Assembly (NCBI GenBank): GCA_963677595.1
Contig: OY782041.1
Location: 4,261,377-4,325,376 of the forward strand
Reading direction: 5' to 3'
From: Spirochaetia bacterium
GTDB taxonomy: Bacteria > Spirochaetota > Spirochaetia > CAKZLE01
DNA: 64,000 bases
How positions within the stretch are numbered: position 1 is the first letter of the stretch; each line of letters begins with the position of its first letter. Below are positions 42,613-49,097 of the stretch, one piece after another. The notes below the pieces were generated by a model, which was given only the letters and a program-made list of their open reading frames with translations, was not told where the DNA came from and made no database searches. A program made the position numbers and the translations under genes.

Positions 42613-43872
42613 TTATGCTTCGATCGTCTTGAAATCGAAATCGAGGGTCGCGAAGAGGTCATCGATCGTCTCCGCCCTCCTGATCAGCTCCACAGAGGTA
42701 TCGGGCTTGAGCAGCAGCTCAGCTGACCGCAGCTTCCCGTTGTAGTTGAATCCCATCGCGTAGCCGTGTGCCCCGGCATCATGAATCACCACGTAATCAT
42801 CCACATCGATCTTCGGGAGCTTCCGGTCGATGGCGAACTTGTCGTTGTTCTCGCAGAGCGACCCGGTCACGTCGTAGGTCTCGCTGGCTTCGGCATCCTC
42901 TTTCCCAAGCACAGTGATATGGTGGTAGGCACCATAGAGGGCTGGCCTCATGAGGTTGGTCATGCAGGCATCGAGCCCCACGTAGCTCTTGTACTTCTCG
43001 ACGACATGGCGAACCTGCCCCACGAGGTACCCATAGGGTCCGGTGACCATACGGCCGCACTCAAAGACGATCCTCAGGGGGTCTAGCCCTGCCGGGATGA
43101 TCTTCTGCTCGTACAGCTCCTTGATACCTGCAGACACTGCCTGCAGGTCGACCGGCTTCTCCTCCAAACGGTACGGGATACCGATCCCGCCGCCCATGTT
43201 GATGAACTCGATCCGGACACCAGCCTCCTCCCGGATCCTCAGGACCAGGTCGAAGAGCATGCGTGCCGTCTCGACGAAGTAGTCTCCGTTGAGCTCGTTC
43301 GAGGCGACCATGGTATGGAGTCCGAACCGCTTGACGCCTTTCGCCTTCGCAGACCGGTAGGCTTCCACGATCTGGTCACTGGTGAGCCCGTACTTGGCCT
43401 CGGTCGGGTGGCCGATGATCACATTACCCGTCCGGGCCTCTCCCGGGTTGTACCGGAAGCAGACCAGCTCAGGCATGCCCTCCACGCTCCGCTCGAGCGC
43501 CTCGATATGGGTGATGTCATCGAGGTTGACGATGGCACCAAGCTCCACGGCAGCGGAGAACTCCTCATCGGGGGTATCGTTAGAGGTGAACATGATCTCT
43601 TCCCCACTCAGCCCTACGCGCTCGGAGAGCAGCAGCTCGGGAAGGGAGGAGCAGTCGGCACCGAAGCCCTCCTCCTTGAGGATGCTCATGATCGTGGGGT
43701 TCGGGCAGGCCTTGACGGCAAAGTAGTTCTTGAACCCGGGAGCCCATGAGAAGGCTTCGGTGAAGGCCCGTGCATTGGCCCGGATGGCCGCTTCATCATA
43801 GATATGGAAGGGAGTGGGGACCTCTGCGGCCACCCGCTCGATGAATGCTCTGGTAAATGGGACGTTCTTCAT
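42613..43872 (-). CDS. lysA: Diaminopimelate decarboxylase
   Basis: FAVKACPN, KYG, NMGGG, ECGR, GSLCENND, HDAGAHG, YNG. Confidence 0.92.
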   Translation of the reverse strand: MKNVPFTRAFIERVAAEVPTPFHIYDEAAIRANARAFTEAFSWAPGFKNYFAVKACPNPTIMSILKEEGFGADCSSLPELLLSERVGLSGEEIMFTSNDTPDEEFSAAVELGAIVNLDDITHIEALERSVEGMPELVCFRYNPGEARTGNVIIGHPTEAKYGLTSDQIVEAYRSAKAKGVKRFGLHTMVASNELNGDYFVETARMLFDLVLRIREEAGVRIEFINMGGGIGIPYRLEEKPVDLQAVSAGIKELYEQKIIPAGLDPLRIVFECGRMVTGPYGYLVGQVRHVVEKYKSYVGLDACMTNLMRPALYGAYHHITVLGKEDAEASETYDVTGSLCENNDKFAIDRKLPKIDVDDYVVIHDAGAHGYAMGFNYNGKLRSAELLLKPDTSVELIRRAETIDDLFATLDFDFKTIEA

Positions 43873-43891
43873 GGTTGGTTATCTCCTGATC

Positions 43892-45124
43892 CTATAACGC
43901 GAGGTTCTTCTTGATGCTCTCGACAGCTGCGAGGATATCTTCACGGTGCCCGAAGGCGCTGAGACGGAAGTATCCCTCACCGGCAGGGCCGAATCCCACA
44001 CCCGGTGTCCCGACGACCCACGCCTCTGAGAGGAGTTTGTCGAAGAACTCCCAGGAGCTCAGCCCGTTCGGCGCATGGACCCACAGGTAGGGGGCATTGT
44101 CGCCGCCGTGGACGGTCAGCCCGACCGACTGGAGTCCCTCGCGTATGATCCGTGCGTTCTCCATGTAGTAAGCGATCAGGTCATAGCACTCCTTGAGCCC
44201 CTCGGGACTCAGGACGGCCTTCCCGCCTTCCTGGACGATGTTCGAGGCACCGTTGAAGAAAGTGCACTGCCGTCTGTTCCAGAGGCTGTTCACCTCTCCC
44301 GGTTCCGTCCCCTCGATGACGAGCTCTTTCGGGACGATGCTCCATCCGAGCCGCACGCCGGTGAAGCCTGCGAACTTCGAGAAGCTGTTGATCTCGACCG
44401 CGCACTCCCGTGCACCCTCGATCTCGAAGATGCTCTTCGGGTAGGAGGGGTCGGCGATGTACTCGCTGTAGGCGGCATCGAAGATGATCACAGCCTTGTG
44501 CTCACGGGCGTAATCGATGAAGCCTTTAAGCTGTTCCTTCGTGGCTACTGCACCGGTCGGGTTGTTCGGCGAACAGAGGTAGATCAGGTCCACATGGTCT
44601 TCCGGCACATCGGGGATGAACCCGTTTGCCTCATTACAGGGCATATAGACGAAATCATGGTAGCGGCTCGTCTCCAGGTCGAACCCGTTCGACCTGCCTG
44701 CGATCACGTTGGAGTCAACATAGACCGGGTATGCCGGGTCCTGGACTGCCACGATCGAGTCAGTGCTGAAGATCGACTGGATGTTACCGGAATCAGGTTT
44801 CGCTCCGTCACTGACGAAGAACTCGTCCGGAGCGAGGTCGATCCCGCGGGTCTCCTTGTAGAAGGAGACAAGGGCCTCACGAAGGTCCCCGTTCCCCTGC
44901 TCATCGCCGTACCCGCTGTAGGAGGCAAGGCTGCTGAGCTTATCCACGCCGGCATGCAGCCCCTTGATGATCGCAGGGGTGAGCGGTTCGGTCGTGTTGC
45001 CGATCCCGAGCTTCTTGATCTGTGCTTCCGGGTGTTCAGCCTGGAAGGACCTCATCCTCCGTGCGATCTCAGGGAACAGGTACCCTGCTGCCAGTTTCTT
45101 GTAATGTTCGTTTATTCGCGCCAT
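43892..45124 (-). CDS. dapL: LL-diaminopimelate aminotransferase
   Basis: YLFPEI, LGIG, GYGDEQG, FVSDGAK, SFSKFAGFTGVRLGW, TPGVGFG. Confidence 0.94.
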   Translation of the reverse strand: MARINEHYKKLAAGYLFPEIARRMRSFQAEHPEAQIKKLGIGNTTEPLTPAIIKGLHAGVDKLSSLASYSGYGDEQGNGDLREALVSFYKETRGIDLAPDEFFVSDGAKPDSGNIQSIFSTDSIVAVQDPAYPVYVDSNVIAGRSNGFDLETSRYHDFVYMPCNEANGFIPDVPEDHVDLIYLCSPNNPTGAVATKEQLKGFIDYAREHKAVIIFDAAYSEYIADPSYPKSIFEIEGARECAVEINSFSKFAGFTGVRLGWSIVPKELVIEGTEPGEVNSLWNRRQCTFFNGASNIVQEGGKAVLSPEGLKECYDLIAYYMENARIIREGLQSVGLTVHGGDNAPYLWVHAPNGLSSWEFFDKLLSEAWVVGTPGVGFGPAGEGYFRLSAFGHREDILAAVESIKKNLAL

Positions 45125-45157
45125 ATCTTCTATCAAATCTCCTAAAAAATACTTACG

Positions 45158-46057
45158 TTATACGTGTTCCAATCCCAGGGCATCGACCGCCTCGATGAGA
45201 ACCGCCCGGTTCTCCTCAGTCGAGAGCGGGCACATCGGGAGCCGGAATACCTCTTCGCACCAGCCGATATGAGCCATCGCCGTCTTGATGGGGATCGGGT
45301 TGGTCTCCACGAAACAGGCCTTGAAGAACGGCGCGAGCCGTGCCTCGAGTTCCCGGGCCTTCGCGATATCGCCGTCGAGGGCGGTATGGACCATCTCGGC
45401 CATCTGATGCGGTATCAGGTTCGATGATACCGAAATCACGCCGTCTCCGCCAGCCTCTATCAGGTCGATCGTCATATTATCATCACCGGAAAGGACCCTG
45501 AACCGGTCGTGCCGGCCGGCGATGACCGATTTCATCTGGTCTAGGCTGCCAGAAGCCTCCTTCACCGCGATGATGTTGTCGCATTCGTTCATCAACCGGA
45601 TCACGACATCGGTCTCGATGTTGACGCCGGTCCTGCCGAAGATATTATAGAGGATGCAGGGGATGCCCACCGAATCGGCGATCGCCTTGAAGTGGAGATA
45701 GAGACCCTGCTGGGTCGGCTTGTTGTAATATGGGTTCACCAGCAATACGGCATCGACACCCGCGGATTCCGCATGCTGGGAGAGCTGGATCGCCTCCGAG
45801 GTCGCGTTGCTCCCCGTACCGGCGATGACCGGTACCCGGCCTGCTGAATACTCGACGGTGAGCCTGATCACCCGGTCATGCTCCTCATGGGAGAGCGTCG
45901 GGCTCTCCCCGGTGGTGCCGCAGGGGACGAGCCCATCGACACCCTGCTCGATCTGGAAATCTATCAGCCGCTTGAGGGCTGCCTCATCCACGGCACCTTC
46001 CGCCGTGAACGGGGTCACTAATGCAGTATATACACCCCTGAATACTAATTCACTCAT
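45158..46057 (-). CDS. dapA: 4-hydroxy-tetrahydrodipicolinate synthase
   Basis: GTTGES, GTGSN, PYYNKP, KEAS, ETNPIP. Confidence 0.95.
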   Translation of the reverse strand: MSELVFRGVYTALVTPFTAEGAVDEAALKRLIDFQIEQGVDGLVPCGTTGESPTLSHEEHDRVIRLTVEYSAGRVPVIAGTGSNATSEAIQLSQHAESAGVDAVLLVNPYYNKPTQQGLYLHFKAIADSVGIPCILYNIFGRTGVNIETDVVIRLMNECDNIIAVKEASGSLDQMKSVIAGRHDRFRVLSGDDNMTIDLIEAGGDGVISVSSNLIPHQMAEMVHTALDGDIAKARELEARLAPFFKACFVETNPIPIKTAMAHIGWCEEVFRLPMCPLSTEENRAVLIEAVDALGLEHV

Positions 46058-46812
46058 ACTTGTTCTCCTATCAGACTCTGCAGCAGATCATCGATAGAGA
46101 AGAAACCCTTCCTCCCATCGATCCATTCGGCCGCCGTGATCGAACCCGCGGCGAAGCCCTCCCGGTTCCGTGCCCGGTGGGTCAGCTCGATACTGTCCAC
46201 AGGACTGTCGAAGATGACCGTATGGGTACCCGGTATCGCCCCTCCCCGCGTCGAGGAGACATGCAGCTCATGCGCCTCGATCGGCCGGTCCAGCATCTCG
46301 GTGACGACTGCCGATTTCCGGTCCAGCCCGTCGATGAGGATCTTCCCGATCATGGCGGCAGTCCCCGAGGGACTGTCGGCCTTCTTGTTGTGGTGGAACT
46401 CATGTACCATGCAGTCATAGGCGCCGAACCCGTCCATGACGGCTGCGGCCTTCCTGACCATCTCGAAGAAGAGGTGTACTCCGACCGAGAAGTTCCCTGA
46501 CCAGATGCACCCGATCCGTTCCCCGACGATGCCCGATACCTCGTCCATGCGGTCGTACCACCCGGTGGTACCGACCACACAGGAGATGCCGATCTCAGCA
46601 TACCGTGATATATTCCCGATGACAACCGAGGGGATCGTGAAATCGATGACTACCTGTGCATCCTTCAAGGATGCTGCGGAGATCTCCGAGGCAGTCACGT
46701 CACGGTCCGTGCTGACCGGGTCGATCACGGCAACCACCTCGTGACCGGCCTCAAGGGCCTTCAACCTGATCAATCTTCCCATCCGGCCGTAGCCGCTGAT
46801 CGCTATCTTCAT
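46054..46812 (-). CDS. dapB: 4-hydroxy-tetrahydrodipicolinate reductase
   Basis: GYGRMG, IDFT, GTTG, EFHHNKKADSPSGTA. Confidence 0.95.
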   Translation of the reverse strand: MKIAISGYGRMGRLIRLKALEAGHEVVAVIDPVSTDRDVTASEISAASLKDAQVVIDFTIPSVVIGNISRYAEIGISCVVGTTGWYDRMDEVSGIVGERIGCIWSGNFSVGVHLFFEMVRKAAAVMDGFGAYDCMVHEFHHNKKADSPSGTAAMIGKILIDGLDRKSAVVTEMLDRPIEAHELHVSSTRGGAIPGTHTVIFDSPVDSIELTHRARNREGFAAGSITAAEWIDGRKGFFSIDDLLQSLIGEQV

Positions 46813-47052
46813 CTCATTGCTCCTGTATGTTCCTTACTATAGAGTAATAATAACTTTTTGTCCATATAATAACAAAATGTTTTTATAGTAACTTGACACA
46901 GCACTGTCTTTCAATTTCCCAGCCAGGGCAATCGCGTAAAAAGTAAACACGGCCAATAAGCCCAGGATTTGAAGATTTCAGATTCTGGGCATTCTTATCT
47001 GGATTAAAGTATATGGTTGTGTTACCATATACTTATGTGAAGGAGGCAACTC

Positions 47053-47625
47053 ATGGGAAGGTTTCCAGCATGGGCGGAGCGCCAGAAGAGAAAAGGGACG
47101 GTGATCAAGTCAGATGGCAAAGGTCACTACTCACTGTACAAGAACTCGTCGAAGCGGGTCCCGGGGAAGAAGAACCCGCAGCCTGTCCAGACGTATATCG
47201 GGGCCATCACCCCAGACGGGGTGATGGAGCGATTCGACATCAACAGACAGTCCAGCGGCATCAGGATATGGGAATACGGATTCTCGTATGCCCTGCAGGC
47301 GCTTGCCCCGCCCTCGTTCCTGAAGGATCTTGGATCAAAGGACCGGGCGATCTTAGTTCTGGGGTGCCTCATCGTTTCGGAATCGGATGAATCATACTTG
47401 TACCGAAGCAGGAGCTCATGGTGTGACGGGTGTGACGGCACCTGCATCTCGCTCCAGAAGAAGAAGCTGGAACGGCTCATAGGATTCACCTTCGAGTATC
47501 TTGCACCGCTGAAGATGATACGACTTGCCGAGATTGGTGGCCAGTTGGTCATGACAGAGATAGGAGAGCTGCAGCAGCGCATCCTAGAAGAAACAGGAGT
47601 GGAACTGCCATGGGACATTCAGTAA
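47053..47625 (+). CDS. IS-borne accessory protein (190 aa), resembles the non-catalytic termini of IS1634/IS4-like transposases
   Basis: SD AAGGAGG; inside the IRs; overlaps the transposase start by 16 nt; no DDE triad seen. Confidence 0.75.
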   Translation: MGRFPAWAERQKRKGTVIKSDGKGHYSLYKNSSKRVPGKKNPQPVQTYIGAITPDGVMERFDINRQSSGIRIWEYGFSYALQALAPPSFLKDLGSKDRAILVLGCLIVSESDESYLYRSRSSWCDGCDGTCISLQKKKLERLIGFTFEYLAPLKMIRLAEIGGQLVMTEIGELQQRILEETGVELPWDIQ

Positions 47626-48848
47626 AGAAACAACGAAGAGACGAGAGACAGCGAGCTGTTGAGGCATGGAGGATCAGCCTGCGGGAGGCCTTCTCCCGCA
47701 TTCCCGACCCACGTGACGTGCGGGGTAAGCGGTACCGGCTTGATGACATTCTCATCCTGGCGACCTACGGGACCCTCTGGGGATTCACAGATTTCGTGAA
47801 TATGTGTGCGGAGCTGGAATACCACCTGAACTATTTCCGGCAGTTGCTTGGGGTTGAGCGGATACCGTCACATGACTGTTTCTCGGCAACCTTCGCAGCG
47901 ATAGACTCTGAACAGTTTATGACCTGTTTCATGGAATGGCTGTCCCAGATTCTGAGCTCGAGGGGCAAACACATCGCCATAGACGGCAAAGCCGTCAGAG
48001 CGGCCTGTGAGAAAGCCCACTCGAGCTACGTGCCGTACATCCTGAATGCTTTCCTGGTGGAGGAAGGCGTGCTGTTCAGCCAGATGCAGATCGATGCGAA
48101 GAAGAATGAGATTTCGACGATCCCGGAGTTCCTCGACTGGCTCGACCTCAATGATTCGATCGTTACTATCGATGCGATAGGGGCCCAGTACGAGATTGCC
48201 GATAAGATCGTGGCCAAAGGCGGGGTGTATGTCCTGCCGGTGAAGCTGAACCAGCCGTCACTGCAGCAGGACATCAAAGAGTACCTGGAGAATTATGGAG
48301 AGCCGGATTTCGATGACATCTCCTACCTGGAGACCGTCGACAAGGACCACGGGAGGATCGAAACCAGGAAATGCTACTACTCGGAGGATGTGTCCTGCCT
48401 CGAGTTTCAAGAGCACTGGGGCACGGTCAAGGCGATCGGTATGCTGGAACGACAGCGGATCGTGCTCAAGGATGCAGTCGATAAGAAAACCGGTGAGATC
48501 GTGAACGCCGATGAGGTGTCAGAGGAGCTGGTATGCTACATCATGAGCGCACCGCTTGGTGCTGAACAGTTCATGCACATCGCACGCGATCATTGGAAGA
48601 TCGAGCTGTTCCATTTCTCTCTTGATACGTCCTACCTGGAGGATCGGTGCACCGCCAGGAAGGGGAATGCCATGCAGAACCTCTCCCTGCTGAGGAAGCT
48701 CGTGATGAACCTGACCAAGCTTGATGACGACCCAAAGATGGTGAAAAGCTCTCAGAAAGGCCGGCAGATCCATTACCGTCACAGCTATGCGTCCTGTGAG
48801 AAGCTGCTGTTCGGAATCCTCCCAAGAAGGTACCAGGATCTCTTGTAG
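47610..48848 (+). CDS. ISAs1-family DDE transposase
   Basis: IPDPR, IPSHD, IAIDGK, KKNEI, VTIDA, VKLNQ, HGRIETR, RDHWKIE, LD...ED. Confidence 0.95.
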   Translation: MGHSVKKQRRDERQRAVEAWRISLREAFSRIPDPRDVRGKRYRLDDILILATYGTLWGFTDFVNMCAELEYHLNYFRQLLGVERIPSHDCFSATFAAIDSEQFMTCFMEWLSQILSSRGKHIAIDGKAVRAACEKAHSSYVPYILNAFLVEEGVLFSQMQIDAKKNEISTIPEFLDWLDLNDSIVTIDAIGAQYEIADKIVAKGGVYVLPVKLNQPSLQQDIKEYLENYGEPDFDDISYLETVDKDHGRIETRKCYYSEDVSCLEFQEHWGTVKAIGMLERQRIVLKDAVDKKTGEIVNADEVSEELVCYIMSAPLGAEQFMHIARDHWKIELFHFSLDTSYLEDRCTARKGNAMQNLSLLRKLVMNLTKLDDDPKMVKSSQKGRQIHYRHSYASCEKLLFGILPRRYQDLL

Positions 48849-49068
48849 CGCTGTAGCCTGAACTTCACAACGTACGGCCAGACCCGGTTCTGCTATGGAG
48901 CAGTTCCGGGTACCTGCGTCCGCCCAGCCCTGGATAACTCGGAGATCCTGGCAACAGGCTGAGGCATGAGGGGTCGCAATCGCAGCTACGACCTCTCTAA
49001 AGCCTATTTTGTCAATACCTTCACGCAATCCCTTTTAAGCGATTGCCTTGTTTCCCAGCCATTTGTTT

Positions 49069-49097
49069 TTGACAATATCTTCCTGTATTGTTATGAT
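49069..49097 (+). promoter_or_regulatory. sigma70 promoter of the acyl-CoA ligase gene, intact just right of the IS
   Basis: TTGACA-17 nt-TATGAT. Confidence 0.7.

Follow-up and report, generated by a model that had tools for sequence, protein, structure and literature searches.

Members of the ISAs1 family of insertion sequences (IS) typically contain a single open reading frame (ORF) filling an element of 1.2–1.5 kb and generate target duplications of 8–10 bp. ISArsp11, as described in the accessible part of PMC6305408, is 1306 bp long with CAGGG ends and a 10-bp repeat. The element analyzed here was located in a 64,000-nt stretch (the window) of Spirochaetia bacterium contig OY782041.1, and it was compared with ISAs1, IS1548, IS1358, ISPa60, ISArsp11, and the family profile NF033564. 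All shared the transposase family, the DDE triad, CAGGG ends, and a 9–10-bp duplication, but the window element and its relatives differed from the ISAs1 members in length (2.1–2.3 kb), an extra upstream gene, a promoter palindrome, and longer non-coding ends. The upstream gene, ORF1, encodes an IS1634-type transposase without the catalytic core, which probably binds the palindrome at its own promoter and thereby represses the two-gene operon.

The window element measured 2127 bp between 18-nt inverted repeats (two mismatches), with a 9-bp duplication outside. Its transposase scored 265.5 bits on NF033564 (cut-off 70) and matched Pfam PF13808 and PF01609; the triad D125, D188, and E332 was intact, the three residues being retained by 57, 58, and 52 of the 58 aligned rows, respectively. 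The ends began with CAGGG and were near-identical to those of ISPa60 and other single-gene members, and the target duplication was 9 bp at both copies of the element and 9–10 bp in relatives. By transposase, ends, and duplication, the element is thus ISAs1, and it carries in addition an accessory gene derived from the transposase of another family; with two ORFs in 2127 bp it departed from the canonical single-gene form and was filed as a variant. The two genes overlapped by 16 nt. A preliminary description of this DNA had given the boundaries, the 9-bp duplication, the 2127-bp length, the hairpin, the 190-aa ORF1, and the 412-aa transposase, and all of these coordinates agreed with the sequence.

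A total of 151 ORF1 hits from genomes and metagenomes (minimum score 95 bits, minimum coverage 150 profile columns; some were repeat fetches of one place) were grouped at 90% identity into 37 clusters; the metagenome loci were the closest 79 of 439 to one Lachnospiraceae query, and that clade was over-represented. An ISAs1 transposase lay immediately downstream of ORF1 in 35 of the 37 clusters, and the remaining two were solo genes. The linked clusters occurred in spirochaetes and in gut Lachnospiraceae-type DNA, and the bounded two-gene elements were mostly 2.1–2.3 kb with duplications of 9–10 bp, compared with 1.15–1.28 kb for bounded single-gene ISAs1 elements from the same hosts. The reverse search, starting from ISAs1 loci, gave (i) ORF1 at 24 of 30 loci in a Sphaerochaeta-family sample, with five loci cut by contig ends and one decayed copy lacking ORF1, and (ii) ORF1 at 5 of 23 loci in a Lachnospiraceae sample, with 14 loci lacking it and four too short. 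ORF1 and the transposase are co-inherited, and ORF1 is no stray passenger. Co-enclosure of ORF1 homologues with ISAs1 transposases, a check proposed in the preliminary description, is supported by these counts. A programmed frameshift fusing the two products was rejected on the mixed relative frames (23 clusters at one offset, 11 at another, and one in frame) and the separate ribosome-binding sites; no fused form was present among longer proteins, which is weak evidence.

ORF1 had been presented as a component of an undescribed two-gene type; that component has an identifiable origin in the IS1634 transposases. Among the hits of the ORF1 profile were the starts of long ORFs annotated by NCBIfam as IS1634 transposases, and hhalign placed ORF1 residues 1–62, 68–125, and 128–188, in order, on IS1634 residues 1–61, 72–134, and 465–509 (probability 99.0, 95.7, and 95.3, respectively), with decoys (reversed alignment and ISAs1) at 0.8 or below. 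IS1634 profile residues ~135–464, a span of about 330 residues that takes in the entire RNase H/DDE core, were unmatched in ORF1, and ORF1 had no conserved acidic triad. Identity to IS1634 transposases was only about 20%, and ORF1 itself matched neither the IS1634 profile NF033559 nor any other Pfam or NCBIfam family up to E 1. Structure models were obtained with mean predicted local distance difference test (pLDDT) values of 94.9 for ORF1 and 81.2 for IS1634, and their predicted helices and strands agreed one for one outside the missing core. ORF1 thus resembled IS1634 at residues ~1–134 and 465–509 and in secondary structure, and it was unlike IS1634 in the missing core and in its location within ISAs1 ends. 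It keeps the N-terminal basic beta-sheet, the helical part, and the C-tail; residues 1–62 were the most conserved part, with a median net charge of +7. The IS1634 model resembled Tn5 transposase (E 1.2e-6), a protein that binds DNA with its N-terminus and dimerizes through its C-terminus. ORF1 is under purifying selection: the ratio of nonsynonymous to synonymous substitution rates (dN/dS) was 0.04–0.28 in the 13 pairs, out of 14, for which it could be computed (the other being saturated), compared with 0.10–0.15 for the transposase. The probable source of ORF1 is an IS1634 transposase that was captured together with its promoter and underwent an internal deletion.

Core-less genes were also found elsewhere, nested among full-length IS1634 on the tree; as judged from this placement, IS1634 transposases have lost the core on more than one occasion. 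Stand-alone core-less IS1634-like genes of ~264–356 aa (L042, L043, and L072–L079) were present in Sphaerochaeta-family genomes, some with neighbors shared across genomes (L042/L043, and also L074/L079, which follow a GntR-type gene); they resemble transposase remnants domesticated by the host, with an origin independent of that of ORF1.

The region 5′ of ORF1 displayed, by eye, a common layout of end repeat, hairpin with T-rich tail, promoter, palindrome, and ribosome-binding site. The palindrome, missed by the preliminary description, had perfect 11-bp arms in the window (47007–47017/47024–47034) and contained the conserved TG-n-TAnnAT. Of the 35 linked clusters, 29 had the strict form GTAT-N13..16-ATAC within 75 bp of the start codon, as against neither of the two solos (shuffles expect 0.27 over all 37), and a relaxed form was found at one of 15 ORF1-less loci with enough upstream DNA. 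Its spacer tracked the clade, being mostly 13 bp in one lineage and 14–16 bp in the other. When 48 distinct variants were compared, 20 had the best consensus −10 box inside the palindrome, eight had it at most 8 nt upstream, and the other 20 had it at a greater upstream distance (mostly 9 nt); these three arrangements are all typical of repressor sites. Since the palindrome lies on or beside the promoter of most linked clusters and is absent from the solos, ORF1 is most likely an autorepressor. In full-length IS1634, the end motif TTAGG recurred near the transposase start in 7 of 9 cases (0.7 expected), the motif having been chosen after looking and one of the seven cases being the end itself. 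The repeat was seen at the transposase promoter in the upstream regions of L008, L041, L044, L045, and L071, with a perfect palindrome in L041, which hints that the parent IS1634 transposase may already have bound its own promoter in an autoregulatory manner. The 5′ hairpin (14 pairs including G.U, z = −3.8), which had been listed among the contents of the element, was present in the window and, by eye, at the equivalent position in many other clusters; it looks like an ordinary terminator-type insulator. Three single-gene ISAs1 elements (L207, L209, and L212) contained at their 5′ ends an inverted repeat spanning promoter and ribosome-binding site with no ORF1 cassette, and this repeat may be an alternative brake.

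The element had been described as intact and recently moved, and further copies and empty sites bear this out. A second full copy, 99.0% identical and with the same ends, was located at G000:C1:4075928-4078054 with its own 9-bp duplication ACAGAATGC; the two copies differed at 21 positions, of which 12 fell in ORF1 (nine silent) and three in the transposase (all silent). Empty sites were seen in (i) contigs of public run X2, which joined 46913 to 49050 and skipped 2136 bp (the element plus one duplication), (ii) an X1 contig passing from the left flank directly into the right flank, and (iii) two same-genus genomes in which the flanking dapB-like and AMP-ligase-like genes were adjacent without the element. 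The public-run contigs also revealed additional flanks. One gut cluster carried 21 different target duplications. The two-gene unit moves whole. A different two-gene ISAs1 element of 2286 bp was present in the same genome in five near-identical copies (e.g., G000:C1:1357525-1359810, locus L001), with perfect 18-bp ends, an upstream 205-aa ORF1 homologue, and a palindrome spacer of 13 bp; it belonged to the other ISAs1 lineage, and its transposase was only 30% identical to that of the window element. A gut two-gene element at L155 occurred as two tandem copies with one duplicated target in common.

The ORF1-bearing transposases formed two groups, each beside single-gene relatives with similar ends, and a single clade was rejected by the approximately unbiased test (p-AU 0.003, LG+G4) on a tree of 33 of the 57 rows, the other 24 (redundant, long-branched, decayed, or cut by contig ends) having been pruned after a first tree. 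The proposal of a distinct ISAs1 subgroup moving as a multi-component unit therefore stands for the two-gene type as a mobile unit and fails for the single subgroup. The ORF1 tree displayed the same two groups with matching subgroups. One capture followed by cassette transfer, two captures, or an early gain with losses are all possible histories.

Alignment of insertion sites revealed a TTGACA-like hexamer about 18 nt past the right end (T in 26 of 27 sites); no sequence consensus was found within the duplicated target bases. A promoter was scored where −35 and −10 boxes matched at least 8 of 12 consensus positions and the −35 box started 17–19 nt from the element end. Promoters at this fixed distance were found at (i) 46 of 49 gut-type two-gene sites (shuffles 2.1), (ii) 8 of 17 spirochaete two-gene sites (shuffles 0.3), (iii) 5 of 17 single-gene ISAs1 sites (shuffles 0.3), and (iv) 1 of 51 left flanks used as a control (shuffles 1.2). 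The window site scored 11/12 and the second copy of its element 0, four of the five copies of the 2286-bp element lay upstream of a promoter, and four ORF1-bearing copies in G865 had no promoter at the fixed distance. The elements integrate in a single orientation, 17–19 bp ahead of the −35 box of sigma-70 promoters. Both flanking divergent promoters of the window element had been described as left intact, and both are whole; the sparing of the neighboring promoter is a product of this fixed-distance targeting, common to single-gene ISAs1, and not of luck. Because single-gene ISAs1 elements also target promoters, and IS1548 is reported 9 bp upstream of the lmb promoter (accessible part of PMC2875397), ORF1 is not required for targeting.

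From these data we infer, as most likely, a mechanism of four steps, in which DNA binding, dimerization, and repression by ORF1 and the contact of the transposase with polymerase are the inferred parts: the 5′ terminator would stop read-through from outside; one promoter would drive ORF1 and the translationally coupled transposase; an ORF1 dimer on the two GTAT half-sites would limit transcription regardless of copy number; and the ISAs1 transposase itself would cut, paste, and find promoters, likely via bound RNA polymerase, by analogy with the proposal for TnGBS/ISLre2. Several points weigh against an autorepressor of IS1634 origin. The strict palindrome was missing in 6 of the 35 linked clusters, the −10 calls are consensus guesses with the window's own −10 box not called by the scanner, and the gut-clade palindrome sits 3′ of the start site, so that an RNA hairpin is conceivable there. 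In most clades the half-site GTAT and the IS1634 motif TTAGG are different. The IS1634 comparison set was found through the ORF1 N-terminus, leaving only the C-tail match independent of selection, and a fold search with the ORF1 model returned no solved structure at E ≤0.001 (best Z 3.5); weak rows of that search (arm-type integrase and AP2-like DNA-binding domains) were discounted as evidence. The direction of descent is unrooted, and ORF1 monophyly was not rejected (p 0.6). Finally, promoter hits at two-gene gut sites exceeded those at single-gene Lachnospiraceae sites (46/49 versus 4/10, Fisher p 0.0003), a comparison that leaves room for a targeting role of ORF1 and in which the age of the single-gene copies, decayed ones included, acts as a confounder.

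That difference is the leading argument for ORF1 as a subunit of the transposition machinery that would sharpen promoter targeting or end assembly, e.g., by bridging the transposase to promoter DNA or RNA polymerase. Such a role is also in keeping with the matching ORF1 and transposase subgroups on the trees and the tight coupling of the two genes, yet it appears unlikely: single-gene ISAs1 also target promoters, IS1548 is reported close upstream of one, the G865 copies carry ORF1 and show no fixed-distance promoter, the single-gene set is partly decayed, and the palindrome would be left unexplained. In its strongest form, with ORF1 as a transposase of another family rebuilt into a targeting subunit that recognizes promoter-bound RNA polymerase jointly with the ISAs1 transposase and yields near-exact insertion 18 bp upstream, the proposal is slightly less likely again; if true, it would amount to a two-family, protein-guided safe-harbor integration system active in the human gut. 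It is considerably less probable that the palindrome functions in the transcript, as a 5′-terminal RNA hairpin whose binding by ORF1 would control translation or message stability. The gut-clade palindrome does start ~9 nt past the −10 box and end just before the ribosome-binding site, and G.T mismatches in the arms exceeded A.C (15 versus 7); that excess was not significant (p 0.13) and therefore favors DNA over an RNA hairpin, the −10 box lay inside or abutting the palindrome in 28 of 48 variants, which would leave the left arm not fully transcribed, and the outer GTAT/ATAC letters were fixed across clades.

The remaining readings concern the IS1634 heritage of ORF1. According to the accessible part of PMC4549789, a C-terminal motif resembling Q-x-x-L-F mediates binding of IS1634 transposases to the host beta sliding clamp, and the ORF1 C-tail retains Q174-x-x-I177-L178; an adaptor to the clamp is nevertheless quite improbable, given that Q174 was present in only 45% of 95 sequences, within a predicted helix, and absent from most aligned IS1634 tails, and that the strongest conservation lay in the basic N-terminal sheet. 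ORF1 might also act as a dominant-negative inhibitor of competing IS1634 elements in the style of the Tn5 inhibitor: it retains the presumed DNA-binding and dimerizing parts and cannot cut, and IS1634 elements are found alongside it within families and, in some cases, within single genomes. We consider this more doubtful still, in view of its low identity to IS1634 transposases, the lack of a full-length IS1634 hit to the ORF1 profile in the window's genome, and the conserved site in ORF1's own promoter. Core-less IS1634 remnants are common, and ORF1 could in principle be a neutral remnant of an IS1634 once inserted in an ISAs1 element; this is the least credible reading and is already disfavored by the low dN/dS values, by full-length retention across sequences less than 25% identical, by the fixed position and palindrome, and by the lack of a second repeat pair around ORF1.

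As an autorepressor, ORF1 would resemble IS1 InsA, IS3 OrfA, and Tn5 Inh, non-catalytic proteins ahead of or within a transposase gene that restrain transposition. InsA, OrfA, and Inh each consist of part of the transposase that their own element encodes, whereas ORF1 is a separate gene derived from the transposase of another family. It would likewise be comparable to IS91 Orf121, an IS-encoded transposition regulator as far as the accessible part of its description goes. Transporter IS (tIS) are IS with passenger genes (accessible part of PMC9330008) and similarly contain an extra gene between their ends; unlike swappable cargo, ORF1 is transposase-derived, fixed in position, and co-inherited across phyla. 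In target choice, the Mutator-like TnGBS/ISLre2/ISKra4 elements have oriented, fixed-distance insertion upstream of the −35 box in common with the elements described here, at 15–17 bp from the end there and 17–19 bp here (accessible part of PMC3942029, whose main text contains no occurrence of ISAs1). The transposase families of TnGBS/ISLre2 and of the present elements are unrelated, the latter being ISAs1-type with no Mutator (p-MULT) family hit. No description of a two-gene ISAs1, an IS1634-derived regulator, or family-wide ISAs1 promoter targeting was found in the full-text literature, ISfinder and most subscription journals lying outside that search, and the two-gene architecture did not appear in the accessible parts of PMC3971601, PMC13343696, PMC9330008, PMC6305408, PMC3281130, PMC11602124, and PMC5005324.

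One IS family thus appears to use the core-less transposase of another family for permanent control, and it does so in two ISAs1 lineages that span spirochaetes and gut Bacillota. A large protein family without a name thereby gains a hypothesis for its function, together with a small testable protein–operator pair whose 13–16-bp spacer tracks the protein clade, and the IS1634 N/C module emerges as a candidate DNA-binding fold without a solved relative. Promoter-upstream targeting lets the elements spread in gut genomes, sparing genes yet occupying regulatory DNA, and ISAs1 targeting would be a second, independent system for studies of polymerase-guided integration.

With clustering at 90%, the ORF1 family counted 337 proteins out of 4696 candidates; with clustering at 50%, there were 853 representatives (E ≤0.001; fragments and IS1634 N-termini included). 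The named members were all labelled 'hypothetical protein', no Pfam family matched more than two of 95 aligned members, and the ESM Atlas returned three unnamed clusters at 0.96–0.97 without Pfam annotation. The distribution was patchy: profile hits, including IS1634 and core-less solo genes, were found in 35 of 201 and 8 of 301 genomes of two family samples, and a phylum-wide sample gave hits in 3 of 401 genomes, namely the window's own genome and two with full-length IS1634. In line with a spirochaete host for the element, G016, a class-mate of the window's genome, was also a member of the family sample drawn around a Sphaerochaeta genome. No ORF1 match was found with three queries in 72,556 plasmids or in the viral contigs searched, and a viral scan for the canonical ISAs1 end gave only two loci. 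The two solo ORF1 orthologues (L033 and L036), from two Sphaerochaeta genomes, were tree sisters near the window's clade with neither transposase nor palindrome; it is possible that they were domesticated by the host. Minimal 125-aa forms, composed of the N-terminal sheet and a short tail, were found at L068:130-507 (+) and L070:11-388 (−), one upstream of an ISAs1 transposase and the other after an ISAs1-type left end with no transposase hit, and both loci displayed a variant palindrome GTAG...CTAC centered on the −10 box. A close ORF1 homologue (cluster of P0002) lay on a 2140-bp contig labelled Maridesulfovibrio, reflecting either transfer beyond spirochaetes or a binning error. A canonical ISAs1 copy was also seen within a tandem repeat of ~170 bp on an Azotobacter plasmid (L230).

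The 3′ non-coding DNA, put at about 180 bp in the preliminary description, extended 202 nt from the transposase stop to the element end (184 nt without the inverted repeat). Its proposed role as a component of the unit was not upheld: its length ranged from 21 to 215 bp in ORF1-bearing elements, it diverged even between close relatives, and elements with only 21–31 bp had intact ends, one with a duplication. Most folding z-scores were unremarkable, the 3′ region of the window element folded at z −2.35 in a form not shared by the family, and the non-coding parts gave no Rfam match up to E 1. A conserved 3′ RNA was ruled out on the variable length, the lack of a shared fold, and the lack of an Rfam match. 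The window's 3′ region also contained a hairpin (48969–48997) that included GCAATCGC, the core of the terminal repeat, and that was absent in close relatives L018 and L021.

Table 1. Coordinates of the two-gene ISAs1 element and its flanking promoters in the window
Feature	Position	Strand	Evidence
Left target-site duplication copy, 9 bp, TTTCCCAGC	46915-46923	.	Sequence; single copy at empty site
Left terminal inverted repeat, begins CAGGG	46924-46941	+	Same end in second copy and relatives
Hairpin with G.U pairs, then T-rich tail; predicted intrinsic terminator	46960-46990	+	Fold; stronger T tract in relatives
Palindrome GTAT-N16-ATAC, predicted operator	47009-47032	.	Motif search and clusters
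Predicted extended −10 box TG-n-TACCAT in right half of palindrome	47020-47028	+	TG-n-TAnnAT kept in relatives
ORF1 ribosome-binding site AAGGAGG	47040-47046	+	Sequence
ORF1, 190 aa; N-terminus and C-tail of an IS1634 transposase, DDE core absent; probable DNA-binding autorepressor	47053-47625	+	Profile and model comparison
Transposase ribosome-binding site AGGAG, within ORF1 3′ end	47595-47599	+	Sequence
ISAs1-family DDE transposase, 412 aa	47610-48848	+	NF033564, Pfam, triad D125/D188/E332
3′ non-coding stretch, unconserved across family	48849-49032	+	Family comparison
Right terminal inverted repeat	49033-49050	-	Sequence
Right target-site duplication copy, TTTCCCAGC	49051-49059	.	Sequence
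Host sigma-70-type promoter TTGACA-17-TATGAT, likely targeting cue	49069-49097	+	Consensus scan, 11/12; −35 starts 18 nt past right end
Left-flank promoter-like site TGGACA-17-TATAGT, intact	46864-46836	-	Consensus scan

The left flank of the element (window 42613–46812, minus strand) harbored a lysine-pathway cluster of ORFs that we take, from their translations, to be dapB-, dapA-, diaminopimelate aminotransferase-, and lysA-like, and the order of the first three ORFs was the same in relatives G001, G002, and G005.

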